Source: Raillietiella orientalis (taxonomy: Eukaryota). From it: a stretch of 64,000 nt of DNA. Positions 1-52,480 of the stretch are shown piece after piece; position 1 is the stretch's first letter; every line of letters starts with the position of its first letter. The notes under the pieces were generated by a model. It saw nothing but the letters and a program-made list of their open reading frames with translations, searched no databases and had not been told where the DNA came from. The stretch is taken from positions 1,612,001 to 1,676,000 of the forward strand of contig JAYWIR010000016.1 of NCBI GenBank assembly GCA_036172245.1. The letters are read 5' to 3'. The translations under genes and the position numbers were made by a program.

Positions 1-65
1 CTCCCAAATGCAGTGGACCGGTGAGGTCCAGGAATCTCTGGCAGCTCTGAGTGAGGGAAGAGCAC
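1..65 (-). CDS. stan: flamingo coding exon 14, partial (LamG1)
   Basis: RCSSLTQSCQRFLDLTGPLHLG after acceptor ctccacag; continues off-window. Confidence 0.9.
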   Translation of the reverse strand, partial: MLFPHSELPEIPGPHRSTAFG

Positions 66-3000
66 CTGTGGAGGGATGAAAAAAAAGAAAATGAAGAATC
101 CTCTTATGTCGAAGAATGGATGAGAGGGAAAAAAAAAAGTCTTCTCAACCTCGGTTCTAGAACGTGCTCCGTGCGGTTGATGCAAGAGAAATCGTCGGTG
201 AACCTGTCAAAGTGCGGCGGCAGGCTGACGCAGTCGTCCACGCTCAGGACCGCTACCTTTGAAAGCATGGCGTTCTTGCGGTTAACGGTCAGAGAGCCCT
301 CCTTACTCTATTCAGGTAATTCACCGACACGGTGTGCCACTGACCGTCGCTAACGCCACCGAGGGGACTGACGGTCACCTGATCGGTGGAAGACCCCAGG
401 GAGAAGGAAAACCGTATGCCCCTGTCGACTATCTCCAGGGCGACGAAGTCGTGTCTCTGGTTGTAGCGCCCGTTGTAGAGCAGGAGGCCGTTACTCCCCC
501 TGGTGGCGAACCTGGAGGAAGAACCCATGCAGACTGGAGGGAAGAGGGGAACGGGTCTCTTCACCTGAGCGACAAATGAAACCTGTTCCTCTTGTGCATC
601 CCTTCCAGCATGAGGAAGGAACCGTTCGCGAAGTTCCTCGCCTTGAGCTCGCAGAACTCGGTGGAAAATTCCAGCATGGTGCAGTTTTCGCAGATGATGG
701 CGCTGCCGGAGGGGGATGAGCACAGGGCGTCCGCCTTGCACAACCCTTCGTGGCACTGGTACACGGGCGTCTCGCAGGTTTCCCCTGGGGGCATAGTCAG
801 ACCGCTTGGATCGAACCTCCATGCTCCGCGAACCGGTAAATCCCGCGGGGCAAACGCACGTGAATCCCCTTTCCTTCCTCCTGCAGAGACCATGGTTCTG
901 GCAGGGGCTGGAGTAGCACAGGTTGATCTCGGCGTCGCACTCGTAGTATTCCTTCATCCCTGGAATGAGATCCGCCCTCTTGCCCGTGGAGCTTTTCCTT
1001 CCAGGCACCTGTAAACCCTTCGGGGCACTGGCATGAGAAGGTGTTCACCGGGTAGATGGGGCGGAACAGGATGTAGTCGGTGTTCACGAACGCACCCGCC
1101 CTCCCGAACTTCAGGACAGAGTGGCACTCCTCAAAGTTCAGGCATGGTTCTTGGACGCAGAGGTCGTCGTCGAAAGGCAGCACCTTCGGTGTGCGCGTCA
1201 GGCAAGCGCCAACCACCACCACCCTCCGCGGGAGCTCACCTCCACGGAAGCCAGGCGTCCCAGAGCGTGCCGGTTCAGGTACAGCTTTTCCTGGAGTCGG
1301 CGCGGGTCGTGGAACAAATCACGGGATCCGCTGGGAAGCTTGACGGAGAAACTCACGTTCAGGATGCTTTCCTCCACGTCGTGATCATCCTGGAAGCAGA
1401 GATGCCGAAGATCACTCATCGCTCAGGGAGAGAGGTGCGACGGCATCCTGTACGAACACCCCGGCTCCGTTCGCCTGGCGGTTCACGAAACTCTTTGATG
1501 CTGTCCATGAGACTCGAGGGTGCGTGTTAGCTCTTCAATTTAGGGGGTACCCCGGGGAGAGGCCACCCTATGAATCCAAGAAGGGCTCCGGAGAAAGGAG
1601 TCCGTTCCTCTGGCGCCTGAGAAAGAACCCCGGAGGCAACCTCTTCCTTATTCTCTCCGGCCCCTCCAGAGGGAGCTGCGAAAAGAACCTAGAAAGGTTC
1701 CGCTCCTGGAATTTCTTCTCCGGAAGGAACAAACATGGAAATGCTCCCTGTTTCCTCCTCTGAAGAGAACCCCGAAGGGACGCTTCCAAACTTTCTCTGA
1801 AGATGGAATATTTCCTCAGGAAGGACTCTGAAAGGTTTCCAATTCGGGAAAGGGGGGAAACGAAAGCTATCGATCCTCGAATTTCCTTCAGCTTCGTTGC
1901 AGAAAATGGAACCAGTCAGGGGTGCGCCCTGAAGAAGAGCCACTGTGCTTCGAAACCTTGTCGTAATGGAGGGGAGTGCATCGGAGGCTGGGACACCTAT
2001 TTGTGCGACTGTCCATTTGGGTGGGGGAGCGAGGACTGCTCCCAAACTGAGGGAAGAGTTTCGCGTAGTTCTTGTGTATGTGCGCGCACTCTCTGAGAGC
2101 TTTTCTTCGAAGGGAGCAGAGAGCTTCTTCACACTTTGGAGAGGCAGCTCCATGGTATGGCTCCATTTTCACAAGCGGAGGAGAACCGGGAACCCCGAAA
2201 GGGACGTGCTCCTTGATTTCTGGAAGGACCGCGGTGGGTCGCCTCCCAATCCCGCAACGGGGCATCCAGGTTTTCGGCCTTCGCCATTGCCGCACCCGAA
2301 TGCAGGACAACCAGCGTCATCATGCGGAAGGGTATTGAAACCCACGACGCACCCGTTTCTCTGACGTCGGCCCTTGACGAGTTTTCCAGCCCGCAACGCT
2401 TGGTTACGCGCGGAGGCTGCAGTCGCAAGACTTATTGAAAGCCTCTTCGACCCCGACGGAGGTTCAGTCTCTCGAGGATTCTAGGTGACCAAGGGGTCAC
2501 CGATGAGAGAGGGAGGTTCAGCGGTCGCGCACCGAAACGAGCTCGATCCTGAGGCAGAAAGCTGCATCCCTCGTAACCTAAGTGACGGATGAAAGGACAT
2601 TTTCCCTTCTTCAGTGAGTTCGGCGCTGGGTGACGCTTGCGTGGCGAGAAGGTCGCTGAGCCTGGCAGCGCGCGCACCCAGAAATCCGTTGAACATCGCG
2701 CTGTGGAGCCGAAGTTCTGACCCGTTGAAGAGTTTGCGGCAGGCGACTACCACCAGAGGAGCTGCCGACTTCAAGAAAGCACATTCTTAAACTCTTGCAA
2801 GCTCCGAAGAGTTCAAGAAAGTTCCCGGGCGGACGCTGCTACGGATGCTGTGCGCAGATGGTGCTCATTCTCGAGGATGCTGTTCACGAGCTCAAGAGGA
2901 ACTATGGTTACGGCACCGCGCGACGCAGGAACACAGGGCTGCGGCTGATCTCGTCGAGAACCGCTTCCCGGAAAGCGTTCGTTGCCGAAAGAAGGGGTTT

Positions 3001-6000
3001 TCCGCCTCTGACCCTGATCTCAGGGTCCTGAGAACGATTCTGAAAAAGGTGAACATTCCAAGAACGCAGCAAGTCGACGGGCAGTCCGACGTCGAACACA
3101 GCGCTGGGCATACCGGGCAGGACGCCTTCCGAACAACTGAGCACGGAGCCGCGCACTCGAGTGCACGGAAGACCACCCACCGCCAGCCTTCCGATCCGGT
3201 GGCGCTGCAGCCCAAGCGATCCGGTTCGGAGCAGTCGTAAGAAGCCGCCATGCTGAACGATGGGCCGTGGCTCCGAAAAAAAGTGAACTCGTTCGACGAG
3301 TCCCTCTCTTGGACAGGGAACATTCCTACTCTTCCATACCCCTCAAGAAACCAGCTCTTCGCCAACAACAAAAAAGCCCGAGAGGTTCGAGAAGGCGGTG
3401 GATGCTGTTGAGAATCTCTCCTCCTTTCATTTCTTTATGCGGTCTCGAATCTTTGGAACAGAACTGCCTCGTCAGGGGTCTCCCTTAAGAGGGTCAACCA
3501 TTCCCCTCAAGATGATCTTCAGTTCAGTGCTCTGCAAGCGGAAACGCTCTTTGAGAGGCCGGAGGTTTGTGGGAGATTCTTGTCCGGAACTCCCGCTACA
3601 GAAATCCACTGCCAACTTGCTGTCTTCGGGGACGAGGTGCTTGCAGACGACAAAGCCATATGACCGAATGAGGTTTTTTCCTCTTTCTTTTCTTGCAAAT
3701 GAGTTTCGGAGTCGGTAAGGAAAGGCGTTGCAGCAGTGAGGAACAAGGCTGTTCCTCCGCATACCGTAGACTTGCCAGCTCGTACAGCTAACGTGTAAAT
3801 CCGGCTCACGGCTTGAGTAGCAGCGGTGCATGCCTGCTGTTCGAACACGGAACTCATCTCGTGCCCAGCGCGGTGGTCATTGGACTAACCACGAAGACGG
3901 CCATGCATTGCTATTCCTCGAACCATTCTTGCGGGCGCCTTTCCGGATGAATGACGCGTTTTCCATCGGCGTTGTCCAATTCTTAGCCACAGGCTGTAGA
4001 GGATTCCCTCCGCGCGGTTAAGCAAGCATCGAAATGGCCATCGAAGGCATGTGATAGATACTTTGATAACCGCTGTTATCGTGGCAGCGGTCGATTTCGG
4101 TGGGATCAAGCAAAAAATGGAGAAAACCTTCACCTGCACATTGAAAATGATGACATCATCCTTCGGAACATTGATGACAGCAGCTAGGCCTTCCATGAAA
4201 TAGAAGAAGAGAGGTGACAGGAACTCTTGCTCGTTGATTTCATGTAGTCTTAACGTGATCGAATTAAATAGCATGTCTTCGGTCACTAGATGCACCCACA
4301 GGGTCAGTTCTGCAGCGACTTCATTGAGACCATCTAGAAGAGAAAAGAAAAAGCCGTCTCAGGCAATGGACGGGACGGGAAAGCATGGCTTCTTTAAGTG
4401 ATTCCTGCCAGCCCTAGCAAAACATGAAAAGAAGAACCGACGGACGAAAGAAATAATCTCTTTAGATCCATTCAGATGGGCGCGCAAAGATTTCTTCGCC
4501 CTCGTCCGACACTCGTGGACGCTGTCCGATCGGACCGTTCCAGGGGAGAGAGTGACGCGTGTTCCCGCGATCGATTCGGGAAGCAGCGCGCAGCAGCGGC
4601 GAGTGATTCCTCTCCATCACCTCTCCAGCGGCGAGTGATTGCCAAAAAGGCACGATTGCGCGCGCCAGCCTCGGACGGAAAAAATCACGAAGGCCAAACA
4701 TTCAAATCGTTTCCGAATGGCCTCTTCCCGAATTACTCGGACGAGAGCACACCGTTGCTGAGCAGAAAGGAACCTTGGAAGCACAAAGAGGTTCTCCAGA
4801 GCGTTTTCAGATGGAAATCGCCCGGGAACGCCGAGCGAGAGGGCAAGACCATAAATTTGGCAGAGTAGGCAGGAACTGGATCCGGAGCGCACGGGCTAGG
4901 TTCGAGGGGGGAGGAGACGTTCGGTAATTAAAATCCGTATGATGGGAGTCGGATAGGAGGCAGCTTCGTCTAAGGCCGGCCCGAAGGCGCTAGGGCCGCG
5001 AATGGCATGCCATCCTTGGGCGGGAGAAAGGTATGCAGAAGAATTTTCTTTCTTCCTTTCATCCGTTTCCACCTTTTTTGTTTTGGTCCTGCCATTTCTC
5101 GGTTGTTTTTGCAAGGACGACGACCGCGGATCAACGAAGCGGTCAGCTCGCGCTCGTGCGCGCTTCCGTGGCTTCGGCGCACCTACGAGGGCCGCCTCGT
5201 TTTCCGGCCCCCCGGCTTGCCAGCTGTCGCGGTGGGGGACGGCTGGAAATCAAGGGATTCGCCTTCCGTGGCCACGAACGAAGAACACGCGTGGGGGTCT
5301 CTGCGAAGATTCCGACAATCCTTCCTTCCTTCCATGTTCTCCTAAGCGTTATCCTCAAACTGCGGTGTCCAGTCATCTTCAGCTGCCCATCGGGTACGAT
5401 GAGCAGCGGGCAATCTCCCAATCACTTGGCTTCTATCGCAAAGTTCTTCTGCCTTTCGTTTAGAGCGCATGAATGCAGTTGGTGAAAGGAAACAGGAAAA
5501 AGGAAGCTGAAAAGAAGACATGAGTGAATAGCAGGATGAATGTGTGATCGAAGGCTTACGGATATGTGATGCTTCGAGCCATTTCGAAATCGGGAAATGA
5601 GGGACCTTTTAAGTCTCCAGGACGCACACGAGCGCGCGCGCGCGCACGCAAAAATCAAAGAAAGCTGATGAAGGCTTTGTAATTAACATGTTTTGCAGTC
5701 GGTCAGCAAATAAATACATTAAAAAAAACTGAGTCTCCTCAAAGTAGGATCATCACGGGGGAGAGGAAAAAATAAAAATAAAAACTGAATGGGGCATCGT
5801 TACGAAGTTTTCGGCTTCCGTAGAGAAGACGCTCTTCAGCCAAGCAGCAAGAGAGAAAGAACAGAACAGCGTCCTGCACGGACAGCGTGCGGTGCAAACA
5901 ACGGCTAGCCGGAAAGCGAAACCAAAATCCTGCAGACCTTTTTATTGATTTATTTTTTTTTGGTCAGCCTGTTTTTCCTTTTTTTTGGAGTCCACAAAAG

Positions 6001-9000
6001 CTAGCTTGTTCCTTGGTTTCGGAATTTTCCGGAAGGCATAGCAGCAGCGACACAGTCGAAAGCTGCTACCAATCGGAGACCTGCCGTCCGCTTTTGTGGC
6101 AGAAAGGCCGTGAATCTCCTTCACCCACGCACACGCCAGATGGGGACCTCACGAAGCGATCTTCTCCTGGTCGCAAACGTCCAAGATGAGGTGGACATTC
6201 GGACCCGCCGCATGCGAACGCGCGGTCTCATTTGCGGAATGGCGCCGCCGCGTGGGGCAATCCCCGAGGGAACGAAACGGCGAGCGATGTCCCCGAGCAA
6301 TCCTGCCCGTGGCCGGGGTTCGCGCGATGCACGTCGAAGGTTCTTCTCTCTCCATCCCACCCGAAGTGACGACGGACGTGTGAAGCGAGGCGCAAGGCCC
6401 GCATCTTGGAATTTGGCCTCGGGCGAGGGCGCCGAGCGATCGCCGGCAAATACGCTGGCGAGCGAGCTGATGCCAGGAGAGGACGAGCATCAGGCCCTGA
6501 GCGTCCGGTCCGTGACGTCACCCCCGGCATTTTCGATTCGACCGAAGGCGGTTTACGTTCTCGCGAAGGGTTCCTTTCTCCAGGCGGGGACCCCGAAGTG
6601 GAGAGAGGTCGCAGGACGTGGGGCTGATCTCCCCTGTTCCGTGCAAGGGCGGCTGCAGACGAACCCCGACCTCTCGGATAGGAAGGGTGCTCAGTTCAGG
6701 GGAATGCCTGCAGAGCTCCCCGGATCGAACGCTCGTTACGAGTCCCTACCCACCCTATAGACCGTCTTCATTTCCGCGAGCCGAAGCGCCCGCGTTCCCT
6801 TCCGTCTCCTCCTTCCTTCCGTGTGGAGAGGGGGGAGCGTCCTACCTGAAACGGCGACCTCCATCAGCGCCCGCATCGGAACGTTGGTGTTGAGCCTGGG
6901 GGACAGGCGGATGTCCCCGGTGGTGGCGTCCACGCTGATCAGGTTGGCCTTGTTCCCGGCGACCACTCTGTACTCGAGCTGGGCAAGAAGTTCATGTCCC
7001 GGCTCTTCCTTAGCCCGCGGGGGGCGGCCTACCTGGTCTGAGACGTCGGCGTCCGCTGCGGGCACCTTGCCCACGGGGCCCGTAGGAAAGTGGTTGCGGA
7101 AGTTGTTGAAGATCACGTGGAAGGAGGACAGTGTGGGGGCGTTGTCGTTGACGTCGGTCACACGTATCTCCGCAGGGACGTCCGTCCTCAAGGGAGGGCT
7201 TGACGCCCTCACCACCACGCGGAAGAGCGTCTTCCCGGACTCGTAATCCAGGTCCACCCGCGTCCTCAGCTCGGCCCCGCGCTCCCGGGGGACCAGGTCG
7301 ACACTGTCCGCGTCGGGGCCACCCACGATGGCGTACTCGACGACGGCGTTGGGACCCTCATCCGGGTCGAAGGCCTCGATGGTGCGGATGAGCGTGCCTA
7401 CAGGGGAGTTCTCCGGGACGGATAGGTCGAGGAGGGCCGATCCGAAGGTCGGCGGGCAGTCGTTGACGTCCTCCACGCTCACAGAGAGGGGGACCTCCGC
7501 CCGTAGCTCCGGGTGTCCGGAGTCCGAGGCCGCCGCCAGGAGCTCGTACCGCGCCACGTTCTCCCGGTCCAGGACCCTCTGAGTGCGAACGACCCCGGAG
7601 GTGGGGTCCACAGCGAAGGATCCGTTCCCGTCCCGAGGCAGGGAGTAGTGCACCCTGCCGTTCAGGCCCTGGTCGGGGTCTGTGGCGCGCACCCGTAAGA
7701 CGCTGGTGCCCGCGGGTAGGTTCTCCGCCACGGACCCCCGGTAAGCGTCCTGGGAGAAGGTCGGGGGGTTGTCGTTGACGTCCAGGACTAGGATCTCCAC
7801 GTCGGTCGTGTCGGATAGGCGCGGCGTGCCGCCGTCGTGCGCGGTCACAGTCAGCACGAAGCCTCCTGCGCGCTCTCGGTCCAGCGTCCTGGTCGTCCGG
7901 ATGGCTCCCGTGGACGGGTCCACCGCGAACTCCGCAGGGGAGTCCCCAGACAGCGAATACGTCACCCGGGCGTTTTCCCCGTGGTCCGCGTCCCTAGCGA
8001 CCACCACCAGGACCGTCGACCCAACGGGGACGTCCTCGGGCACGCTGGCGCTGTAGGGTGCCATCTCGAAGCTGGGCGCGTGCGTGTTCGCGTCCGACAC
8101 GTTCACGCGCACGGCGCACGTGTCCGAACGCCCCCCGCCGTCGGTCACCGTGACGGTCAGCACGAACGACTGGTCCACCTCGAACTCCAGCGGCTGGGCC
8201 AGGCTCAGGATGCCTTCCCCGTTCTGGGACGTCAGGGAGAACTTGCCTCTGTCGTTGCCGGCCGTGATGGAGTAGGAAAGGCGGGGATCCAGGTCCGCGT
8301 CCGTGGCAACCACCGTGACGACGGGAGTTCCTGCAAAGAAGAGAGACGAATGAGGGGATGAAAGAAATTTCAACCAGTCCGATCCGGGACGCCCATCATC
8401 CCATGGTGAAGGAGGGGACCCTGCCATCCCCCTTACCAGTTCCAATCAGATCCCACTTTCCCAAAAGGCTCGGGGTGCTCCGCCCCCTAGGCGCTGTGTC
8501 CTCTCTCCCTTTTTCCCAAGGACATTGCTTTCCCTCTTGCATTCCTCCATGCTTCGCTGCATCCCTTTTCTTTCCCAGATTCTCTCTGCCTTGTCTTTTC
8601 ACCGATAGCCCCCAGGCAGGGTCCCTAGACCTTTCCGCATTCTCTTCCACCCTGTCCCGAGAGGATGGTACAGGCAGCGAGAGCCCTCTCTTCCAAGTCA
8701 GTGCGCTCGTCTCCTCCTCGTTCGATGCCTCACTGGCGAAGCTGGTCATCCCGTCCCGGAAACTCTCAAAAAGTTTCATCACCCCCCTCCTCCTCCAAGA
8801 GCCCCCGGAAAGGAGCGAAGAACACCTCTCCTGCACCTTCTCTTCTTCTTCCCTCCTCACCTTCGCTCCTGTTCCAGTCGCCCTTCGGTAAGCGAGCGGT
8901 CCCTTCGCCCTTGGCGCAGCAGTGAGCCGCTGTTTTTCCGCAAGGCGCTTGGCGCGGATTCACCACCCTCCGGCCTTGTAGTTGGCGCCGCTGAGTCATT

Positions 9001-12000
9001 TCCGTTTGCCTCCTGAGTCCGCAGTTAAGCACGGTCCCCCCCTCTCGCCCTCCTCGGAAGAACAGCTGCCCTACGTGTGTCATCGCTCTTCATGCTGGGA
9101 GGGAGCCAGCGGGCGTCGCTCAATCCGCGAGGTCGCACACTCACCACCTTTGTGCGCGTTCAGAGGACTGTGCGGCACCTCCGTTTCGGGGCTGCGCGAC
9201 GGCCACCCCTCACTGAGCGGAGAATTCGCTCGGTGAAAGAGAAGGAAGCCCACAGGGAGATTCCACCTTCCCTCGCTTGAACATCCCTCCTCTGCCCTCC
9301 CTCCCCCATCAAGTCCTCTCGGGCAGATGTCCCACAGAGTCCATGCTCGATGGCGTCAAAAATGATCTCCTTCCGGAGCGTGCAGTGGGATGGGAAAGGG
9401 TGTGCACAGGAGCGGCCCTTCTTAGATTCCCTCCATGTACCTGGGTTCGTGTCCTCTGAAACGCTGACCTCGTAGACTTTGGACTGGAACACGGGGTCAT
9501 TGTCATTCTGGTCCTGGACACGTATGAAAAGATCAGCACTGGAATCCAAGGGCGGCTGGCCGTTGTCCCGCGCGTTCACCTGGGGAGATGAGCGCCCCGT
9601 TCCCATCAGCGGGCAGTGCCTAGCAGCGTACCTATCCCAAACCCCGCAAAAGATGTCCCGAGAAGAAGAGGGGGGAGGATTTGACAGAGGGGGCAGGAGA
9701 GGGAAGGGAAAGGAGAGAGTACGCGCGCCAACCTTGTACTGGTAGAAGTCCCTCTCTTCCCTGTCCAGCTCTCCGGAGGTGGTGATCCAGCCCGTCACGG
9801 AGTCCACGGCGAAGGGTCCATCGGGGGAGACCGGGGACAGGGAGTAGCGGACCTCCCCGTTCGGGCCGTCATCTGCGTCGTACGCCTGGATGCGGATCAA
9901 GCTGTAGCCCACGGGCGTGTTTTCGGCGACCGTCTCTTGGAAGAGGGGAGTGTAGAACCGCGGGGCATTGTCGTTTGCGTCCAGGACCTGCACCAGCAGC
10001 TGGGTCGTGTTGGAGCGGCTGGGGCTTCCTCCGTCTGGAACGCGAGGGAAGGGATGGGAGAGGGTGGGTCCCTGGTGGGAAACTCTCACCTTGCGTCCTC
10101 ACGACGAGGCGGTGGCTGCGGACCTGCTCGTAGTCGAGAGGCTGGAGAATAAAGACGTTCCCGGTTAGCGGGTCGATGGAGAAGAGGTTGTGGTTGTTGC
10201 CTCCGATGATGGAATACCTCAGCTCGGCGTTCTCGTCCTCGTCCGCATCCGTTGCCCTGGGAGAAGGCGGAGCTCAGAGAAGGGAAGGAGCAGGAAGAGC
10301 ACGTCGGACCATCTTCGGGAACGGAGGGAAGATCGGTGGCTCCACCTTTCTTCCTCCGACTCCCCCCTCCCTCATGTTCCATCCGCCGCCCGGCCCCGGC
10401 GTCTTTCGTGACGTTTCGTGGGTGCAGGAGGAGACCCTGCGTTTCTCCAATGTGCCTTCCCGCACCCAAGGAGGACTATCAAAACTCCCGCTCGTAGTGT
10501 CCCTGCCCCTCTGGGACGGCCGATCCTCCCAGGCACCTTAGGACAGCATCCCCTTTCCCCTGCAGTCGGAGGATCGGGGGGACGGTTCGCTGCCGTCCTC
10601 GAGATGGCCGCGAGCTTTCGGTCTGGAGGAATCCCTCGATCGCACCAAGGAGCATCGTGACTCCCTTGGCTGCTGCATCTCGTGGTTTCTTGGCGCAGGA
10701 GTCCGTTGTTCCGCGAAGAGTGCAGACCCCAGGGGAAGCCAGACCGCGAAGCAGGCTCCATTCGGATTGCGAGAGGCGAACTGCAGGTGGCAGGGAAGCT
10801 GTCCTCCCACAGCTTCTCATCCCTGAGCCTCCCGAAGGGATGGTTCATCTGTCTTGTCAGCGCCTACGAACGCATCCCCTCCTCCCTCCTCCCCTCGCCT
10901 CTCATCATGTTCCTTGCATTTTCGTTTCAGCTCCACCGCTCTCACTAGAAACTACGGGACAGGGAACCCATCTTCCTCCCTCCTCCCCATCCCGTTTGCC
11001 ACCTATTGGAAGCGGCCTTCCTGAAGACGGATGCGCTCCTTCCAGGGCTTTCTCTTCTGCAAACGCTGCTTGAAGTGGCCGGTGCCTCCTCTCTTCTTAA
11101 GCATGTCGTCTCTCCTATCACCGGCAGCTCGTTCTGCTCTCCCTCCGCCACCGCATGCGGCAGCGCCACAGGGGTTGCCAAAGCACCGGTCCTCCCGAAG
11201 CAGCAAGCTGCGACGCGCCTCTATTACCTGGACTGCCCTCCCCCTTCTCCCGGCGTTCCCCTCCTCCCCTTCTTGACGTGGCAGGTGAAGCGGGATAATA
11301 CGCGTCCCGAAGAATTGCCTCTTCATGCTCGACTACCCTTCTCGTTTGACGGCTCAGCGCCTCTGGCATGCGCCTGCGCATCCTTCAGGATACTGGGGTG
11401 ATTTCGCAGAGAAACCTGCAGGTCGCGAAGCCACCTCGACAAGAGAAAAATGGCGGCTACTCTTCATGAAGTGGTCCACGCGAAGCCAGTTGCCTTATGG
11501 CTGCTCTTGGCGATCACCTCTTTCTTTGTTGCTGCCCCTCCCCATCTCTCCCTTCGTTGTGCGACGGTGTTCCTGTGACGGTGGCTTCCACGCAACGTCT
11601 GCGATCTGTCTTCAGGGTCCCTAGCCCAAGGGGATGGTTGGTCTGACTTCCTGGCTCCCGCAGCAGCAGACTACGAGACCGAAGCCGTCAGACCTGAGGG
11701 TCCATTTCTCCGCCTCCAGGGACCCATGCTCCCGCGTTTGTTTCCTCCCCGCCTTCTTCCTTTTGCAGCTTCCGGAGCTGGATTCCCTCGCTCGACAAAG
11801 AGTCCTCTTTCTCACGTTCGATTTTCTCTGCTTCTTCCAGCCCTCTTCCGCATCAGAGAGGAAGAAGGGAAGGTGGGTGGAACCCTGCACTCCCATCTGT
11901 TTGGCAGGAGCAGTGGCTCTTCTCATCCTCAGCAACCAGGCGGGGGAACGAGGAATTCCTCCCGAACAGATAACCAACCCGAGTCTCCACCATGGCAACG

Positions 12001-14571
12001 AGAGCTTTCCAAAAACTGATTCTTCACGAGGAAGAGTGTCATTGCTCCAGCAAGCGGATCCTCCCCCCTTCCCATCCACCTACTCCTGCGAAACACGTCC
12101 CTGTCTTTTGTGGTCCCTGCGGCCGCTCTGCCACCGTTCACCGAGGGGTATGTATGCAAAGCCGGGAACCATGGCATTGCGATGGCTGCCTCTGACGCTG
12201 GGAGGAGCCTCTTCTTTAGAGGAGAGGGAGCACCTTCGTCGCTTGCACGTTCCCCCTTCCCGTTCCTTTTCCCGTCCCGGAATCTCTGTCAAACCGGGAT
12301 GCGAGCGAGCAGCAGGGAATCTTTGGGAGTTTCGCGGGGGTTCGAAGTCGGCGACAAACAAACCAGGAAGGAAAAAGATGAACTGCGTGACGGGGGCGAA
12401 CGGGAGTGGAGCAAGGGAAGCCGGCGGATCTCGGAGATCAAGAACCGGAGTTAGAAGAACGGAGGAAGTGAGCAGGCAGAGGGGAAAGGGAAGAAGAGTG
12501 AGGGCTGCCGACGCTTCTTGGGCACTAAGAGAGAAGCAGCGTTAGGGACTCCGGACGGCGACCTCGAAGATCTGGACGATCGATGCTCTTCCCCCTTGCT
12601 CACTCTTTCCCACTCCCCTCTCTTCGGCTGCAGCGCGTCCTCCTCCTCTAGCAACTCGGGATTCCCATCTGCATCCTTCAAAGAATCGGTGGTCTCTCCC
12701 TTTTACCCCCTCACCCCCCATCTTGGAAGGTCCCCGGGATTTTTCTCCAACTCGCGCCGAAGGCCTCGACCAGCTCCAGGGGAAGCAAAGAGGGGCGTTT
12801 CCTCGCCGCCGAAGAAATTCGCGGCAGCGTGAAACATGTCGGGGATCTTGGGTTCGGGACCAAAGAGGAAGAAGATCTTCCTCTGGACCACGTCGTGCAC
12901 ACGGCAAGCGCATGCAAGGCGGGTCGGGATCCCATCACCCAGCTTCCTCCCCATCACCTGGGGAGGAAGCTGAAGCTGTCCACGAAACCACCACTGGTGC
13001 CGCGAGCGGTCGCTCGAGGTAAGGGATGGGGAGCGCGGCCGAGACACTTCGTCCGTTTCCGCGGCGACCGGGAAGCGCACCGGGAGTTCCTCTCACCTGA
13101 TGCTGGCGATCACCTCATTCGGTAAGAGGCTCCCGTTCTCTGGCACCTCCACAGTGTACGCTCTTTCGGTGAACTGGGGGTAGTTGTCGTTGTCGTCGAG
13201 CACGGTGACGGTGAGCGTGACCGTCGAGGACCTGCGGTGGACGGGGGAGGCCTCGTCAGTTGCCTGCAGCACCAGATCGTATTGGCTGATCTTCTCCCTG
13301 TCCAGGGGGGAGCGCAAGCTGATGATCCCCTTGTCGGGGTCCATGTGAAAGGTCTCCTTCGTGGCCACGGGGCTGACGATGCTGTACTTGATCTGGGAAT
13401 TCGAGCCGGCGTCCAGGTCCGTCGCCCGCACGGCGATGATGGCGGTCCCTATGGAAACGGACTCCCTCACGGAGGTCCTATAGGACGCCTGCTCGAACAT
13501 AGGGGTATGGTCATTGACGTCCTCGATCCTGATCTGCAGGGTCGTGGTCGCCGACTGGGGAGGCGTCGAGCTGTCCACCGCTATGATGCGGAAGTAGTGC
13601 ATGTCCATGAACTCCCTGTCCGGCACCCCCGTCGTCACGACGATCCCCGAGTTGGGGTCGATGGAAAACAGGCTCTGGGACCTCGCATCCAGGATGGCTT
13701 CCATGTGGTACTCCAGGGGAAGGGTTCTGGCGTGGTCAGCGGTGACGGCGGTGACGATGTAGCCCTTCTCCTGCTCCTCCAGGACCGAAGCGGTGTAGAT
13801 AGTCCTGTTGAAGCAGAGGGATTTCTCCTCCCTCCGTCTCCGCAAAGATTTCGCGCCTCCAACTGCCTCTTCCGGGGCCAGGAGAAACCGGAATTCTGTG
13901 CTCTCTCTGCTCCTGGCAGAGCCCCGGCACTTCAGGTCGACCGAGGCGAGGAGTGTTTCTTCCCGCGCCCCACCCCCGAGGCACCTGCGGTCCGCCGAAG
14001 CCACTAGGTCGCCTCTGGCGTTGCTGAAGCCCAGCCCGTCGCCTGCCTCGGAGGGGAGGTTCCGCGCGCATGTCCGGAGGAGCACGGAAGGCCAGAACTC
14101 TTCCGCGCGGAGGATCACCTGACCGCGGCGGAAACACTCCCGCTGCCGCCCCCACCCGAGGCGGACGACCACGGTCAGCATGCTCTCTCCGGGATGGACG
14201 TGAGCAGGAGGCTTCGGAGAAGCACAGGAGCTGCCCGACACGGAGAGCCGGAAGGACACAGAGCTCACCCCGAGGGCTGTGTGGTTCGCTGATCGGTTCT
14301 CCCCCCTGGTGACGTAGACGTTGAGCACTCGGGGGGTGCACCCCAGGTTCTTCAGGCAGATGGTGCCATTCGTCGTTGAGGTTTCTAGGACCTCACCGCC
14401 GTGGGGGGTATCCTCAAGCGCGACGCTGTAGAATTCCCCTCCTTCGACACTGGCGTCCAGAGGGAAGCATCCCGGGTTGCGGTCGGGAGCCGTGAGTAGC
14501 AGAGCTCCGATCCTCTGCAGCACGAAGAGCACGGTCGTCAGTCCCGCGAGGGCGGAGGAGGAGGCCATCAT
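1..14571 (-). CDS. stan: Flamingo/Starry night (CELSR-family) cadherin adhesion GPCR, spliced 5' part (14 exons in window, 3' end off-window)
   Basis: Joined exons 14571-13097, 10256-10090, 10034-9733, 9579-9441, 8330-7033, 6978-6846, 4333-4134, 1389-1240, 1183-1009, 959-834, 784-565, 511-307, 256-150, 65-1 give one open frame with all GT-AG introns in matching phase. Domains: 9 cadherin repeats (DxNDxxPxF motifs), Flamingo box (LVTEDMLFNSITLRL), VLPFDDDLCVQEPCLNFEEC EGF, LamG (GLLLYNGRYNQRHDFVALEI; FLDLTGPLHLG). This order is diagnostic of Flamingo/Celsr. Confidence 0.96.
150..256 (-). CDS. stan: flamingo coding exon 13 (LamG1)
   Basis: VAVLSVDDCVSLPPHFDRFTDDFSCINRTEHVLEP; acceptor tttcaaag, donor GAG|GTTGAG. 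Confidence 0.88.
307..511 (-). CDS. stan: flamingo coding exon 12 (LamG1)
   Basis: RFATRGSNGLLLYNGRYNQRHDFVALEI...GVSDGQWHTVSVNYLNR; acceptor ttcctccag, donor AGA|GTAAGG. Confidence 0.93.
565..784 (-). CDS. stan: flamingo coding exon 11 (EGF-like 3, start of LamG1)
   Basis: GETCETPVYQCHEGLC...FCELKARNFANGSFLMLEGMHKRNRFHLSL; acceptor cccccag, donor CAG|GTGAAG. Confidence 0.9.
834..959 (-). CDS. stan: flamingo coding exon 10 (EGF-like 2)
   Basis: GMKEYYECDAEINLCYSSPCQNHGLCRRKERGFTCVCPAGFT; acceptor cattccag, donor CCG|GTTCGC. Confidence 0.92.
1009..1183 (-). CDS. stan: flamingo coding exon 9 (EGF-like 1)
   Basis: VLPFDDDLCVQEPCLNFEECHSVLKF...FRPIYPVNTFSCQCPEGFT; donor CAG|GTGCCT. Confidence 0.93.
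1240..1389 (-). CDS. stan: flamingo coding exon 8 (Flamingo box)
   Basis: DDHDVEESILNVSFSVK...LQEKLYLNRHALGRLASVE; acceptor gcttccag, donor GAG|GTGAGC. Confidence 0.92.
1455..2430 (-). mobile_element. tRNA-derived SINE copy in intron 7, interrupted by the 1801-2089 insertion
   Basis: Reverse complement aligns by eye with the SINE copies at 21.3, 25.1, 34.2 and 51.5-52.5 kb (head cgtcgtgggtttc..., body gaagagaaccccgaagg, tail ccaggcgaacgg). Confidence 0.75.
1892..2046 (+). pseudogene. Inverted pseudo-exon: copy of a Flamingo LamG1-end/EGF exon
   Basis: Reads FVAENGTSQGCALKKSHCASKPCRNGGECIGGWDTYLCDCPFGWGSEDCSQ, the motif that follows LamG1 in Flamingo/Celsr proteins. Preceded by acceptor tttccttcag; followed by CTGAGG where a GTGAGG donor would be expected. 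Opposite strand to the gene. Confidence 0.8.
2600..3900 (-). mobile_element. Possible heavily decayed LINE (APE-like) remnant in intron 7
   Basis: Weak APE-like motifs LLLAKSWF and VLGMF in broken frames; boundaries approximate. Confidence 0.3.
4134..4333 (-). CDS. stan: flamingo coding exon 7 (end of cadherin 9, Flamingo box)
   Basis: DGLNEVAAELTLWVHLVTEDMLFNSITLRLHEINEQEFLSPL...IIFNVQ; acceptor ttctcttctag, donor CAG|GTGAAG. Confidence 0.93.
6150..6750 (+). mobile_element. Decayed CR1/Jockey-like RT N-terminal remnant in intron 6
   Basis: SFLQAGTPKWREV followed by ISPVPCKGG resembles the SL..G..P..WK.A.V.PI.K.G RT motif, with frameshifts. Confidence 0.4.
6846..6978 (-). CDS. stan: flamingo coding exon 6 (cadherin repeat 9)
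   Basis: LEYRVVAGNKANLISVDATTGDIRLSPRLNTNVPMRALMEVAVS; acceptor cttgcccag, donor CAG|GTAGGA. Confidence 0.9.
7033..8330 (-). CDS. stan: flamingo coding exon 5 (cadherin repeats 5-9)
   Basis: Inside ORF 6736..8445; GTPVVTVVATDAD...FHVIFNNFRNHFPTGPVGKVPAADADVSDQ; acceptor ctctctctttgcag-like tract (tctttgcag), donor CAG|GTAGGC. Confidence 0.95.
9441..9579 (-). CDS. stan: flamingo coding exon 4 (cadherin repeats 4-5)
   Basis: VNARDNGQPPLDSSADLFIRVQDQNDNDPVFQSKVYEVSVSEDTNP; acceptor ctccccag, donor G|GTACAT. Confidence 0.92.
9733..10034 (-). CDS. stan: flamingo coding exon 3 (cadherin repeats 3-4)
   Basis: DGGSPSRSNTTQLLVQVLDANDNAPRF...LDREERDFYQYK; acceptor gttccag, donor AAG|GTTGGC. Confidence 0.92.
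10090..10256 (-). CDS. stan: flamingo coding exon 2 (cadherin repeat 3)
   Basis: ATDADEDENAELRYSIIGGNNHNLFSIDPLTGNVFILQPLDYEQVRSHRLVVRTQ; acceptor ttctcccag, donor G|GTGAGA. Confidence 0.93.
13097..14571 (-). CDS. stan: flamingo coding exon 1: signal/prodomain, cadherin repeats 1-2, start of 3
   Basis: ORF 13093..14571; hydrophobic N-terminus, RRRR motif, cadherin motifs DVNDHTPMF and DDNDNYPQF; donor AG|GTGAGA after 13097; candidate acceptor ctccttccacaccag ending at 14589. Exact start codon is uncertain. Confidence 0.9.
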
Positions 14572-17099
14572 TCCACGACGTCGCCGGACTGGTGTGGAAG
14601 GAGCCTTCGCTTTCTGCCTATGTCATCAGTGAGCGGCAAGACAAAGGCACTCCTGGTGGCAAAATGGAAAAAGAAAAAAAAAACTTTGGGGAGAAGGAAG
14701 GAAGCTGCACGCGTTTCAGGGGCACCGGTCAGTGGCGCAGGGGGCATCGGGCTATCTGGATTTCTTGAAGTTGGGATGTCCCGAAACTCCAAAGACGCGT
14801 GGCGCCGCCGGGATCGAGGCGCCGTGCCGGCAAGAGAGTCTCGGAGCAGACCTGCTCGGAGGATGGACCCAAGAGCAATACCCCCCCCCCCTTCCTCAGG
14901 ACCGGATGAACGCTTTCTTTCATCCACTTTTTGGCCCTCTCTTTCCCCTCCTTCTCCGCCCCTGCGGGAAAGAGAAAAGCCAAAAGAGAAGGTCCGCTTT
15001 TAGGAAGGGAAAGGAAGGGAGGAAACCTGACTGGTCGCCCCACGAGAGGGTCATGAGACGCTGCACCTCTGCTGCTGACCGGAAGGTCCATCCCGGGAGG
15101 TCACCTGACTCGCCCGCTCTCTCCCCGTGGAATGCAAAGTTCTGAGGCGTTGCCGAGTTCCCTTGACGAGACGCCATCGGCCCTTCCTGGACACGGTCAA
15201 AGGCGGAGAGGAACGCGGTCAAAACAGGAGAGCTCGCGGGTCCGGAGGAGGAGGAAGGGGGGAAGGAGGTGACGCTTTCCAGGCGTCGAAGGGAAACGGA
15301 AGGCCGCAGATCCCCTGGAAGACCCTCGTTTCCATGCGAAGGATGCCGTTAGGGTGCAGAAGAATTTCTCTCCTTTCCCCATTTCTCCTACGGAGGAGTT
15401 TCCTGCAGAAAGCGAACCGTTGACAGACTCTGTGTGGTGACCTCCGTTTCGAAATGGTATTGGAAGGAGGAGATGAGTCGCGGGGATCCGCAGGTGGCGC
15501 TGCTGCCTTGCGGGGCTCCTCGAATCCTCAACGTCCAGCGACGAGCCCAACTCGGCTATCGCGTGGACTCAGGGCCGAGGGGTACTTCAGGGCGAAGAAG
15601 AGGGTGAGGGGAAGGAAAGGGACTTCGCTTTTCCGTGAGTGAGCTCCCTTCCCCTTGTCGAGAGCGGAGCAGGGAGGCTGGAATTCTCCCCTGGGATTCT
15701 CCCCCTCTCCCTGGGTCCTTTTCTCCGCGTCCTTCCTGATTCCGCTGTCCCTGCCTCACGGGAATACAGCCTACCCTCCGCTCTCGCAAGCGGGCTGACC
15801 TTCAAAAGAAGAGGTACAAGGGTACTGGACTCCCTGCTTTCCGGTTGCATGATTCAGCTGCAGGAACAGGCAAGCGGCTCTCCCTTCCCCTTCTTCCCCC
15901 CGGAAGATGGAAAAATCAGAACGCTTCTGAGGGAAAGAGGGATGCCCAGGAGGATGACATCCCCTCTGGTATAGCCAGAGGAAGAAGACGATCAGTGATC
16001 TCCCGAGGGGAGCTCCGCTGTTGCCTTGGAAACTCCTTTCGTGGTGTGAGGGCGAAGCAGCACACTCTTCTCCGGTAGTCTTTTCGAATTTAGCCTTCAC
16101 GGAATGTCTCCACCGGGAACAGAGGAATCCTCCTGCCTGATTCCGCACTCCTTCCTTCCTCCCCTCCTCATTCCTTCTGCGTCCATGCCCTCCATCCTTC
16201 CCGTAGTGAGGAAGGAAGCTGCCCGCGGATTGCCGCAAGACAGGCGGCGAGGAGAGGACAAGCCCGAGGGCAAAGAGGGGCGAGCACCCTATTACACAGA
16301 ATAAGGGGGAGAAGGAAAGGAAGTTACGGGTCGGCAAGGAGTGTGGTGGCATGGCCGAGGCAAAATAGGAATCCTGGAGGCGGAAGAGCTGCCTCTATGA
16401 CGATCGACAGACAATGGGATGGGATGAGCGCGCATTTTGCAGATTCCCAAACCTCCGCCCCCACTTCCAAATGTCCTCACTCACGGAGGAAGAGGCGGAG
16501 AGCAGGTGGAACGCGAGCCCCTTCGGGAAGAGTGATGAGCCCCATTCCTCGCAAGCATACGCTCTCATGGAGGAGCAGAGGAAGGTAACCTCCACTTGTT
16601 CGCGACCATGGCAACGCCAATAAAGCGTTATGGAGAAGAACGCTTCTCTCGCCTACTTTCCATCTCCCCAAGTCACGAAAAGACAGTATTTTCCAGGTAT
16701 CCCTGGAAAAGGCTCCCCTCCCCTTTCCAAGGATACAAGGAACCCCTCCTTGTTAAGGGTTCCCTAGGGAACGGCGAAAGGGATGGAAACACAGGGAGAT
16801 GAGGTCACGCCATCGTCTGAATTCCTACTCTCCCCTCTTCCCTCTGCTTCTTTCCCTACATGTCTGATTCTTCTTGAAGCTCCAGACCCCCTCCCCTAAG
16901 CGGCTCCTAAAGGAGATGGTTGCCGTTGCTAGGGGAAACTACCAGTGCTCTCTTTCTTTCTTCGAGGAAAGACGTGATCCCTCTCACTCTGAAGACCCCT
17001 TTTCCTCAAAGAAGGCTCAAGACAGTAGGGAAGTGTGGGGAGAGATCTTCCGGCAAATCATTGGGAGCCCAAATCTCTCCCACTTTGAGGGGAGCAGGG

Positions 17100-20400: not shown

Positions 20401-21319
20401 CTGCTCTTTTTCCCCCTTTTTCCCGGAATCAGAGGAAGAGGAGGAGCACGACGCTTCCGGATATTTGCTTTTCCTCCCTCGGCGGAGGGGTCCACGTGGA
20501 CATGCGCCTCGGGTGACACAGCGACGTGGACTCCCTCAGAAAGCGAAGCGAATGGCAAAAATGGACGAACGGTTCCGGGGAGACGGGAGGCGGTCACCCC
20601 ACTCGCGTCGAAGTGAACGGACTTCTGTGTACAGTACATGTTTCTGACCGTACCGATAACCTCCAAACAACTGTCCACTGCAGAGGGAAACACTTCACAT
20701 CATGAAGGAACGTAAGAAAAGAAAAGCTCTGAGATGATGATGCACTGGCGCACAAAAGTCTTGTACGTGTCCTGCATATACAAACATTTATAAATAAATA
20801 CACGTGTACACGTTCTTTTTTTTTGCTTGCGTGGATGATTGAATTTCAGGTCACGGACGACCTTTCGTTTCTTCTATTCCGGTTTTTACAGCCGGGCCCC
20901 CCCTTCCCCCCTCAACAAAAAAAGACACCACGGTGACGAAAAGCTGCTCAGTGTTTCTCTGCTCATGGACCTACGGGGAGCAGCCACCGCGTCTTCCTCC
21001 GCTGCGTCGCGTGGAAGCGTCCACATGGCGGACACAGGAACGTGAACCTCCTAACGATGCGGGTCGCGATTCCGGGTTCTTGGCGCTTTCGTACAGAAGA
21101 GTGCGCGGGCTCAAGAAGAACACAGCCTTGCAGTGGCCACCTCGGGGGTGTGCCAGAAGAGACGAGCTCTGGTGACACCAGCTGTAACGAGAGATCCCTA
21201 ATTCCCAGCTAGTTAATGGGGGGTGGCGCGAGGGACGTGAGACGGCAAGCTGGCGCGTATGTCGCCGATTCTTAAACGCGGCTCGTGGGCCCCATGCGGT
21301 CCACTGCGCCAAAAAGGCT

Positions 21320-21880
21320 GCCTCAATTCGACGGCAGAGTGGCTGTGGTCTCCGCGTGTGGCACCAAAAGCCGCAGGTTCGATCCCCGCAAGGAGGATGG
21401 AAGTCAGAGAAAGGGGGGCGCGTTGTGGGTTTCGAGTCTCTCTCTTCCTTCAGGATGACGCTGGTTGGCCTGTAGGTTTCGGGTGCAGCACTGGTGGAAG
21501 CAGCCGGAAACCGAATGCCCCAGTTGGCTGTCGAGATTGGAAGTTGATCTTCCGGGGTCCTTCTAGGACACCAATGGAGTCAGTTCTCTCCGGGGTTCCC
21601 TTTGGTTGGGAAAATGGAGTCGTCGCCCTCTTCAGGGGAGGGGACCCTCCATCGAGTACCATGGAGATCGTGGATCGATGCCTCTTCAGAGTGTAAGAAG
21701 CGCGCTGCTTCATTTCTGGAGCATCCTCCAGAGGAATTAGGAAGATTCCTTTCCGGGTTCTCTGCAGAGGAGTAAAAACAGGGAGCGGTTCCCTTGCGGG
21801 TTCCCGCCGAAGAGGGAATTCCAGGAGCGGATCCTTTCTGGATTCAATTAGGAGAAGAAATGAGGAGTGACGCCCGGTGA
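21320..21880 (+). mobile_element. tRNA(His)-like SINE, 3' truncated
   Basis: A-box-like CGGCAGAGTGG (21332-21342), ccgcgtgtggc anticodon-arm-like segment, B-box GGTTCGATCC (21376-21385), shared body. Confidence 0.75.
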
Positions 21881-22649
21881 GCAAGAAGTCCGGCTGCCCC
21901 TCTGTACTGACCTCTGCTAAAAAATGCTGGATGAAAAGGGAAGCTTCTGGAAAATCCCAAAGCAGCCCAAATAGACATGCTGCTGCTCCGGGACGCTGTG
22001 ATTTCGAGGCCGCTCAGACAGGATGCATGAGTCACCGCTCGCTCTGTTTGGACTTCCTTGCTTGCGACCACTCTTTCCAGAAGGACGGAGGAGCAGTGAA
22101 AACAGCTGGGGAGAAGCAGACTTCCAGGAGGCTGCTCTTTTCGCTGTTCCGTTGCCGGGTTGTCTCCTTGGCAGCCAGGAAAGAACTCCATTCTTTTCGA
22201 CTTGCTCCATTCGCGGTACCCTGCCGCGCACGTGTCATCATCGCAGGACACGTCCCGGTGCAGGGGGTCCTTTCAAGGTCGCTGCAGATCTCGGAGCGAG
22301 CTCCCTCCTCATGTGCTTAATCCATGTTGCGGTCAGTTTGCTCGAGGCAAAATGAGAGGACAAACAAAGATCTAAACGAAGGACGGCCTCATCTGAAATC
22401 GCTCTTGTTCTTGCTTTTCCATAGGGAACCAGGAGTTCGTCTCCTGGGCTTTGGCAACGCGACTTTCCTCCACTGTAGCACGGCATCATCCTGGGATGAG
22501 ACGCGAAGGTGCAGCGCGCTCGCTTCTGTCGCTCGTTCCTCAGGGAGGAGCGGTTACCAGTGATGTGAGCTGACGCCACCATCGAGGACCCTCACTGCGC
22601 TGATTGTAGCAGGCGTTGCTCCATGCGAGAGCCCTGTTTCCAGTGCGCC

Positions 22650-25084: not shown

Positions 25085-25815
25085 GTCCGTGCTGGCGGTC
25101 GTGCAGCTGTGGTCCTCGCGAGAGGCACCTTGCGTCGCAGGTTCGAATCCCCAGGTGGAGGATTGACGCCGGGAAATGGGTGCTCATCGTGGGTTTCGAG
25201 TTTCCCCCTCCACCTGAAGGACGACACTAATTGGTCTGCTCAGGAGCGGCGCTGTTGAAAACCGGATGCCCCCTTGATTGTCCTGGACTGGTAGCTGACT
25301 ATTCAGGGTCCTTACAGAACATCAAGGAGCATAGGCTGCCCTTCAGTTGTGAAAATAGGCCCTCCATCGCGTACCACGGAGGTGGTTGATACCCATTCCC
25401 GGGGATTGCATCTCCAGAGTGTAAGAAGCGCTTTATTCCCTTCGGGAGTGTCCCTTAGAGAAAATAGGAAGCGTCCCTTCAGGTTTCTCTTCAGAGGAGC
25501 AAAAACAAGGAACGGTTCCCTTGCGGGTTCCCTCCGGCGAAGAAATGAGGAGCGGCCCCCTCCGGGGGTCCCTCCGGAGAGAATAAGGGAGAGGTTTTCT
25601 TCGGGGTTCCCTTCCAAGAGTAAGAGGAAAGAACTCCTTCCTCCAGAGGCTCTTCCTGGATTCACCCCTTCGGGGTCACCTCCCTATCTTGAAGAGCATC
25701 CTCGAGGTACGTGGACAGCGTTGAAGAATTTAGTGAATCCCCCCTAGGGAGGCGAACGGTTCCCCAGCACTTGGCGACCAAGAAAAAGAAAAACTGAAAA
25801 AAAGAAAAAAAAAGC
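25085..25815 (+). mobile_element. tRNA-derived SINE, near full length with A-rich tail
   Basis: B-box GGTTCGAATCCC (25140-25151), shared body, 3' end ggcgaacggttccccagcacttggcgacc followed by an A-rich tail. Confidence 0.8.
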
Positions 25816-34159: not shown

Positions 34160-34655
34160 CCCGCATTGGTGGCTGCGTGGCTGAGTTCTCAGCGCGTGGT
34201 GCCAGGCGCTGAGGGATCGAATCTCCACGTGGAGGACTGACGCCAATGAAATGGGGTGCATCGAGTTTCCCTCGACGGACGACGCCAGTTGATCCGTAGA
34301 CTTTGCGTGAGGCACCGATGAGAGCAGCCGAAAACTGGATGCCCCCGTTGACTGGCAGGGATCGGAAGATGACCATCCGGGGTCCTTCCAGGAATCAAAA
34401 GTGGGTTCCTTTGGAGTTCCCTTCCAAGCGTGCGAGGAACGGATTCCTTCCTCCAGAGCCTTCCTGGGTTCATGGGGCGGTCCCTTCCCGGAACATCCCC
34501 TAACTTGAAAGGTTGCCACATGACATGTACCCTCGACGGACGTGGGCGGTGCTGAAGAACTTCGTGAGCCCCCAGGCGAACGGTTCTTCAGTACTCAACG
34601 GACCAAAAAAAAAGGAAAAAACACCCGGAAAAACAAACAAACAAAAAAAAAGCAG
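34160..34655 (+). mobile_element. tRNA-derived SINE with internal deletion and A-rich tail
   Basis: A-box TGGCTGCGTGG, degenerate B-box GGATCGAATC, shared 3' end caggcgaacggttcttcagtactc and A-rich tail. Confidence 0.78.
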
Positions 34656-51429: not shown

Positions 51430-52480
51430 GTAGCAGCGTCGGTGGGTTGACCTGTCGTCCACCTGTTCAGTCCTCTTCCGGAGGTTTCCACAATAACCTA
51501 CCATCTGGTTCAGCACTGGTGGAAACCAGATGTCCCCGTGGACTAGACGGGATTGAAACTTTACCCTTCGGGGTTCTTCCAGGAATCAAGAATCCGGTTC
51601 CCCTCGGGGCTCCCTTCCGGTTGTGAAAATGGAGCCGCCACCATAGTTGATAGCCCCTCGGGGAGTTGCCTTTCCAGAGTGTCAAGAAGCGCGCTTCTCC
51701 CTTCGGGGAGCGCTCTCCAGAGAAACTGGGAAGCGTCCCTTCTAGAAGGTTCTCTTCAGGAGGAAGAACCAAGAAGCGGATCCTTTCCGGGAGGTTCCTC
51801 CGAAGAAGAAATGAGGAGTAGCCCCCTTTGGGGGGTCCTTTCGGAGACAATCAGTGCGAGGGTTCCCTTCAAGGTTCCCCTACCAAGCGTGAGAGGAACG
51901 GATTCCTACCTCTGGATCCCTTCCTGGATTCACAGTATGGTCCCACCGGGATACTTCCGGGAATCATGGATCCGGTTTCCTTCGAGGTCCCCTCCGGTTA
52001 TGAAAATGGAACTGTCCCTTTCGGAAGGAGACCTTTCATTTCGTATTATGGGGCTGGTTGGCACCTCCCTTGGGGTATCGCCTCTCCAGAGTGTTAGGAA
52101 ACGCGCTGCTCCTTTCGGGAGCACCTTCCAGAGAAATCCGGAAGAGTCACCACAGTGCTCTCTCCAGGAGAGAAGCGAACAAGGAACGGATCCTTTCTGA
52201 GTTCCCTTTGGAGAAGGTGGGAGTTGCCCCCTGCAGAGGACTCCTTCGGAGAGAATAGGAGAGAGGTTTCCTTCGGGGTTCTCTTCCAAGCGTAAGGAGA
52301 GCTGACTCCTTCCTCCATGGTCTTCCTGGATTCATAGGATGGCCCCCTCCCAGGGTACCCCCTAACTTGAAGAGTTACTACACGCACCCTTAGAGTGCGT
52401 GAATAGCGTTGAAGAATCCCTCCTAAGGGAGACGACCGGTTTTTCAGCACTTGGAGAGCCAAACAAAAGAAAAGAAAGGA
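51430..52480 (+). mobile_element. SINE body with internal tandem duplication and A-rich tail
   Basis: Body segment occurs twice (from ~51571 and ~51948); 3' end cggtttttcagcacttggagagcc then A-rich. Confidence 0.75.

Follow-up and report, generated by a model that had tools for sequence, protein, structure and literature searches.

We analysed a stretch of 64,000 nucleotides from Raillietiella orientalis (contig JAYWIR010000016.1, positions 1,612,001 to 1,676,000; hereafter the window, with positions counted from its first letter), which is eukaryotic and has a G+C content of about 56%. Near its left edge, an insert of 289 bases (1801-2089), read directly from the sequence, splits a copy of an interspersed repeat and carries on the + strand a putative copy of one exon of Flamingo (stan/CELSR) with non-coding-looking flanks. 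A predicted stan gene encoded on the - strand carries the insert in one of its introns, which extends from 4134 to about 1440, and the insert is thus placed on the strand opposite to its host gene. The insert, its borders and the 7-base duplication that surrounds it are real and lie beyond chance. The features at this site are given below; X1 denotes a public DNA run.

1467-1793, no strand: left part of the interrupted repeat copy (BLASTN, alignment to four to five other copies, and X1 contigs at a summed depth of about 18-34).
1794-1800, no strand: left copy of the duplicated 7-base target, TCTCTGA, aligned with the single TCTCTG(G/A) of the other repeat copies.
1801-1891, + strand: 5' flank of the insert, apparently non-coding and with a G+C content of 45%; its last bases are the acceptor-like tttccttcag.
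1892-2046, + strand: putative exon copy of 155 nt, with 51 whole codons at 1893-2045, predicted to encode the LamG1 tail and an EGF domain of Flamingo/stan.
2047-2089, + strand: 3' flank of the insert, beginning with CTGAGG where a GTGAGG donor would be expected; the likeness to orthologues ends after ...DCSQ.
2090-2096, no strand: right copy of the duplicated 7-base target, TCTCTGA, placed on the same basis as the left copy.
2097-2368, no strand: right part of the interrupted repeat copy (BLASTN, reaching query position 279, and alignment).

The insert and the interrupted repeat

The target reads AAACTT/TCTCTGA/GAGC, and the insert between the two copies of TCTCTGA starts with AGATGGAATA and ends with GTGTATGTGCGCGCAC. 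The acceptor-like motif, whose last base is 1891, is followed by the open segment of 155 nt and then, at 2047-2052, by CTGAGG; the parent sequence presumably has GT at the site where the copy has CT (2047-2048). The open frame of the insert continues to the TGA of the right-hand TCTCTGA, forming an open reading frame (ORF) at 1764-2093. Direct matches of seven bases at the same spacing were found at 6 of 63,697 window positions, which corresponds to a chance of ~1e-4 per position. BLASTN revealed no second copy of the insert within the window, the other matches being 30 nt or shorter with E >= 0.66. Terminal inverted repeats were not detected, since none of the 19 inverted pairs of at least 7 nt within 1700-2200 sits at both insert ends. 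Neither a poly(A) tract, a poly(A) signal nor a TTTT/A-like or A/T-rich target was seen at the insert, and no tandem repeats were found in 1-6000.

The form of the repeat before the insertion was examined using its other copies. When the flanks were searched within the window by BLASTN, 1400-1800 on the left had six other matches and 2090-2500 on the right had four. At least five copies or fragments occur in the 64 kb, and the repeat is therefore short, interspersed and multi-copy. In a MAFFT alignment, the junction was covered in four of the five other copies (51480-51960, 21380-21860, 25440-25770 and 52060-52400, all on the reverse strand); the insert was absent from all four, and each contained the word TCTCTG once. 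The fifth copy (34310-34600) is deleted at the junction.

X1 (Logan contigs) was the sole run listed as sharing words with the stretch, with a small share; RNA runs were absent from the listing. Sixty-seven of its contigs were placed on 1-4000 at 80% likeness, 65 of them partially and nearly all on the repeat. Three contigs, representing other repeat copies, jump from 1776/1787 to 2108-2111 with 13, 23 and 27 letters between (e.g. GAATTTCTCTGGAGGGCGCTTCC), and the window sequence minus one TCTCTGA fits this form. The summed depth was 18-34 on the repeat as opposed to about 2 on the one single-copy contig placed, which covers 116-366 (251 nt) with 0 differences; the organism behind X1 is thus either this one or a very near relative. 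The coverage of X1 was too low for single-copy sequence elsewhere in 1-4000 and did not extend to 1877-2010, and neither the junctions of the insert nor its parent are seen in this run.

The original prediction described the insert as a 289-bp segment that breaks a short interspersed nuclear element (SINE) and is bounded on both sides by the 7-bp TCTCTGA. The sequence, the repeat alignment and the X1 contigs bear out the segment and its borders. As for the SINE, the short, interspersed and multi-copy nature of the repeat stands, but a head derived from tRNA, 7SL or 5S with an RNA polymerase III promoter was not found. Rfam gave no match in the whole window at the gathering score and no tRNA, 7SL or 5S match at E up to 1 in 1400-2500 and 21300-21900, and ARAGORN called no tRNA in the insert-bearing repeat copy. 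In another repeat copy, ARAGORN reported a tRNA-Leu(CAG)-like stretch of 97 nt (21598-21694, + strand), which was without Rfam support at E up to 1.

The exon copy and its host gene

The 51 whole codons translate to FVAENGTSQGCALKKSHCASKPCRNGGECIGGWDTYLCDCPFGWGSEDCSQ, which begins with FVAENGTSQGC and ends with SEDCSQ, and a Pfam EGF domain was detected in the insert ORF on the + strand (E = 3e-5). When all PDB chains were searched, residues 1-51 of the peptide aligned in one stretch with residues 1398-1448 of CELSR1 (8vy2_A; 47.7 bits). Among the chains listed, 8vy2_A alone covers residues 1-51, the best stretch of the others starting from residue 7 or later; Notch and Delta outscore CELSR1 only through the summed scores of multiple EGF repeats. 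On the same chain, the LamG1 exon of the host gene matches residues 1230-1299, and LamG2 is indicated from about 1480 by another, weak match. A library of 1.84 billion representative proteins was then searched with the host LamG exon (307-522, - strand), and 17 long stan/Celsr relatives were taken from the best 150 of the 659 matches with E <= 1e-3. The homologous site was matched in 15 of the 17 relatives with 40-53% identity over 45-52 residues, and the remaining two gave a match at a different EGF only. The alignment with CELSR1 and the 15 relatives uphold the earlier assignment of the segment to the Flamingo exon that follows LamG1, and by homology the peptide is predicted to comprise the LamG1 tail and the EGF domain located between LamG1 and LamG2 of Flamingo/stan/CELSR.

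Of 18 columns conserved in the 15 orthologue rows (at least 80% agreement), 16 are kept by the copy. All seven cysteines and the motifs NGT..GC, NGG.C and W are intact. The two deviating columns, E for T in NGG-T-C and S for G before the last cysteine, each have the same residue in one real orthologue. The copy, as judged from its translation, thus appears to be without visible decay of conserved residues, and because of this it would be young. Random change would be expected to strike several of the 18 columns after a few per cent of divergence, although this is reasoning and not a measured date.

Searches aimed at the organism's own stan protein or at fragments of the exon found nothing. The 51-aa peptide had one candidate but no match among database proteins of 91-2000 aa and no candidate among those of 28-90 aa; degenerate-codon scans of metagenome contigs with both halves of the peptide gave 0 matches each. 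A 569-aa cadherin exon of the host gene, compared with proteins of 997-2845 aa, had matches to other cadherins only, none of them above 41% identity.

We also considered whether the 5' flank is decayed coding sequence. Read in frame on the + strand, 1830-1892 gives ...ERFPIRERGETKAIDPRISFS, in which ERFPIRE resembles the E.FPV of the LamG1 tail in the orthologues, and tblastn carried 4 of the 17 orthologue alignments back to 1830. This candidate was dropped, since a 35-position profile of the LamG1 tail gave no support: in a search of all 1,781 window ORFs of at least 20 aa, ORF 1764-2093 was not among the matches listed, down to E of about 50. The E.FPV likeness is probably a matter of chance. 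Compared with sub-motifs of the repeat, the flank showed a short, weak likeness (1804-1825 to 1707-1728 at 82%).

The host gene was traced with the same 17 proteins. P0220, the stan protein of the tick Ornithodoros turicata, had the top summed tblastn score on the window; Culex stan and a Lingula CELSR2-like protein are further members of the set. Against P0220, host exons were found in order on the - strand, and the exon order of the gene runs from 14.3 kb down to position 2. Among the 392 high-scoring segment pairs of all 17 proteins, only 17 lie on the + strand, all of them within 1830-2081. A Pfam scan of 102 ORFs (101 of at least 150 aa and the insert ORF) gave matches in seven, including cadherin repeats with a CELSR2-type ninth cadherin (13096-14622, 9163-10098 and 6739-8445, - strand), EGF (800-1318, - strand), and EGF with laminin G (292-1044, - strand). 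On this evidence the host is identified as a putative stan orthologue on the - strand. The host segments that bear on the insert are as follows.

8331-6853, - strand: host segment, P0220 residues 640-1116.
4343-4134, - strand: host exon upstream of the insert-bearing intron, P0220 residues 1116-1185 (tblastn, 47% identity).
1440-1237 and 1234-995, - strand: host segments, P0220 residues 1169-1293.
About 1440-1237, - strand: host exon downstream of the insert-bearing intron, 5' end unfixed, P0220 residues 1169-1231; the relatives P0131 and P0186 match at 1395-1237.
960-298, - strand: several small host exons, the last ending at 307 with a GTAAGG donor, P0220 residues 1289-1457.
About 295-176, - strand: possible further small host exon (P0186 match and frame translation).
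70-2, - strand: last host exon in the window (...SCQRFLDLTGPLHLG), leaving the left edge, P0220 residues 1488-1510 (tblastn, 65% identity; frame translation).

The order of these exons agrees with the claim that the insert is antisense within an intron of Flamingo/stan. That intron had been called intron 7; its position between the exons at 4343-4134 and about 1440-1237 holds, but the number is unconfirmed, the count of upstream exons being uncertain.

The host coding sequence leaves the window at residue 1510 of tick stan, and the copy corresponds to residues 1544-1602 of P0220, leaving a gap of about 33 codons between the last host exon and the copied segment. The true exon would therefore be located to the left of position 1, which fits the expectation of the original prediction that the source exon lies just past the left edge. 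Judged from this alignment, the parent is presumably the host gene's own exon at that place. The phase of the copy, with a single base between the acceptor-like AG and the first whole codon, suggests that at least one intron falls within the 33-codon gap. The parent would thus be some 2 kb or more away from the copy, which would lie in the same transcription unit in the opposite orientation.

Elsewhere in the gene, the cadherin alignment at 9436-10044 (- strand) contains an in-frame stretch of 51 residues without counterpart in tick stan. This stretch is probably a short intron that is open in frame, and ORF 9163-10098 would accordingly not be one exon. Beyond 15 kb, tblastn with the 17 proteins gave no stan-like matches. 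No Pfam family reached the threshold among the ORFs of at least 150 aa in 15000-64000, where only a weak DUF5555 match was seen (58312-58773, 18.2 bits against a cut-off of 25). The approximately 49 kb upstream of the first cadherin exon are repeat-rich and apparently non-coding.

Origin of the insert

We give about an even chance to the reading that the insert is a young, local, inverted templated insertion without a function of its own. The genomic stretch copied would have comprised one host stan exon flanked by intron sequence, some 91 nt on the upstream side and some 43 nt on the downstream side, and the copy would have been set in reverse about 2 kb or more upstream, in an older repeat that occupies an earlier intron of this gene. 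The most likely route would be template switching at short range, during replication or the repair of a break, either of the fork stalling and template switching (FoSTeS) or microhomology-mediated break-induced replication (MMBIR) type or by synthesis-dependent repair of a staggered break. In such an event, the growing end would have used the opposite strand close by as template for 289 nt and then come back at a point 7 nt behind the one it had left, so that TCTCTGA would stand on both sides. Template switching typically yields a close, inverted source. The lack of a poly(A) tail, an A/T-rich target and terminal inverted repeats counts against the usual retroelement and DNA-transposon routes, and the copy would not be spliced into stan because it is on the other strand. 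We infer the route of copying, the youth and the neutrality. The insert would then probably represent a tidy, ordinary small templated insertion or inverted micro-duplication, which is a known kind of event.

Several points weigh against this reading. The parent exon would lie outside the window and was seen in none of the searches, so the donor is presumed. The youth rests on just 18 conserved columns, and the neutrality is assumed. A clean 7-base duplication without scars is also the signature of a staggered cut by an endonuclease, as made by retroelements and transposases. If the flank of the parent exon has TCTCTGA, the 7-mer would be a junction microhomology and not a target duplication. 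Furthermore, CTCTGAAGA is also present within the repeat, at 1758-1766.

The intron flanks had been taken to indicate copying at the level of DNA and not by retroposition. This holds for a processed retrocopy, which was rejected since the insert is equivalent to one exon, its flanks look non-coding, the likeness to orthologues stops at both exon ends, and poly(A) is absent; reverse transcription of unspliced pre-mRNA, however, would keep the flanks too. A cut-and-paste transposon or miniature inverted-repeat transposable element carrying a gene fragment was likewise rejected, there being no terminal inverted repeats and no second copy in the window.

Many arthropod non-long terminal repeat (non-LTR) elements need no poly(A) tail, and a fragment of unspliced stan pre-mRNA could have been reverse-transcribed and inserted at the same locus, either through a non-LTR enzyme that worked in trans on a staggered nick or in the form of a complementary DNA that patched a break. 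We regard this RNA-templated origin as unlikely though credible. Both ends of the insert are intron-like with the exon in the middle, as in a nascent transcript. According to PMC5110952, human class 1 (LINE-mediated) templated sequence insertions have a duplication of at least 5 bp, a poly(A) tract and a TTTT/A target, class 2 (break patch) insertions have no target duplication and show microdeletion or microhomology where they join the target, and templated insertions can comprise intronic fragments. The duplication of at least 5 bp that defines class 1, in which intronic fragments are included (PMC5110952), is thus in favour of RNA templating, while the absence of a poly(A) tract with its polyadenylation signal and of a TTTT/A-like target means that two of the three class 1 features fail; class 2 is contradicted by the duplication itself. 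In addition, no reverse-transcriptase ORF was present among the 101 window ORFs of at least 150 aa, and an insertion only a few kb away from its source would have to be coincidental, except where the nascent transcript served as template in cis. A source other than the downstream exon of the host, namely a stan paralogue, an older pseudo-copy or an exon-capturing mobile element, seems to us quite improbable. The parent exon itself is unseen, the third-position G+C of the copy (0.61) differs from that of four of five host exons (0.79-0.87; 0.50 in the fifth), and the 5' flank has motifs like those of the local repeat, all of which would suit such a source. On the other hand, the copy is exactly the segment that the host still lacks at the window edge, the conserved residues are intact, unlike those expected of an old pseudo-copy, and the insert has neither a second copy in the window nor terminal inverted repeats. 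To our knowledge, arthropods generally have one stan gene, which argues against a paralogue. That the insert is an artefact of sequencing or assembly (a chimeric read, for instance), or that the exon was cut out of its proper place and pasted here, is hardly to be expected: no read from this organism was seen to cross the junctions and X1 leaves 1877-2010 uncovered, yet artefacts do not make a precise 7-base target duplication in a repeat that is otherwise in register, and loss of the exon would strip a conserved, disulfide-bonded segment from stan.

Possible consequences and related systems

Long intramolecular duplexes are substrates of ADAR and Dicer and promote circular RNAs, back-splicing or skipping. 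The inverted copy might accordingly be a working or newborn self-targeting RNA element, pairing along as much as 289 nt with the true exon and both splice sites and looping out at least seven EGF/LamG1 exons. We consider this very improbable, as also its proposed effects, which are skipping of the 155-nt exon (frameshifting), hyper-editing, small interfering RNAs, and back-splicing to circular RNA. The geometry alone speaks for it, since the copy lies within the transcription unit of its presumed parent and runs antisense to it, and the undecayed state of the copy would allow extensive pairing if the parent is as supposed. An intact look, however, is equally expected from a recent neutral event. 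Moreover, strong self-silencing, or skipping with a frameshift, would carry a high cost in an essential polarity gene such as stan.

In the sense of the host gene (- strand), the insert contains, within 1997-2052 and 1929-1942, acceptor-like sites, ctcttccctcag (the reverse complement of CTGAGG) and ggctcttcttcag, as well as donor-like sites, atag/gtgtcc and acaag/gtttcg. Judging from such motifs, it is conceivable in principle that stan takes up parts of the antisense copy as exons.

As a templated insertion, the site would be a clean, datable case of the shuffling of exon sequence within a gene, and the insert could be used as a marker in comparisons of populations or species. It also calls for caution with gene predictors, which might take its open, EGF-scoring ORF for an exon although the strand is the wrong one. 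Should the copy indeed pair with its parent, it would provide a natural experiment on the effects of a long-range duplex on splicing, editing and small RNAs at the birth of an element, and a snapshot of intronic editing-complementary sequences or hairpin-RNA regulators arising from their own targets, the host being an essential planar-polarity receptor.

The insert fits neither of the two human classes cleanly. Going by the features given in PMC5110952, it resembles class 1 in having TCTCTGA twice where other repeat copies have it once, and differs from it in having no poly(A) tract, poly(A) signal or TTTT/A target; it differs from class 2 in its 7-base duplication. Moreover, the organism here is an arthropod-like protostome, with a source that probably lies only a few kb away rather than far off as in the human cases (PMC5110952). 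Like Pack-MULEs, Helitrons and transduplication, the site presents a displaced exon with bits of intron and short direct repeats at its flanks; unlike these, as the class is generally described, it lacks both terminal inverted repeats and element ends and is single-copy in the window.

The origin of hairpin RNA (hpRNA) loci and of plant MIR genes has been put down to inverted duplication of the sequences they target. Intronic editing-site complementary sequences, hairpin-RNA loci of Drosophila and circular RNAs formed through inverted repeats share with the insert an inverted, transcribed copy able to fold back on its parent in the same or another transcript. In contrast to these systems, the arms here would be at least seven exons apart, and one arm would be an exon of an essential gene. 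FoSTeS/MMBIR-type template switching gives templated insertions and small inverted duplications. The 7-base duplication is tidier than in many such events, as this class is generally described. What the insert has in common with this class is a short piece of 289 nt, presumably taken from the nearby opposite strand, that carries no tail or transposon ends and is set into its target with a small duplication at the junction.

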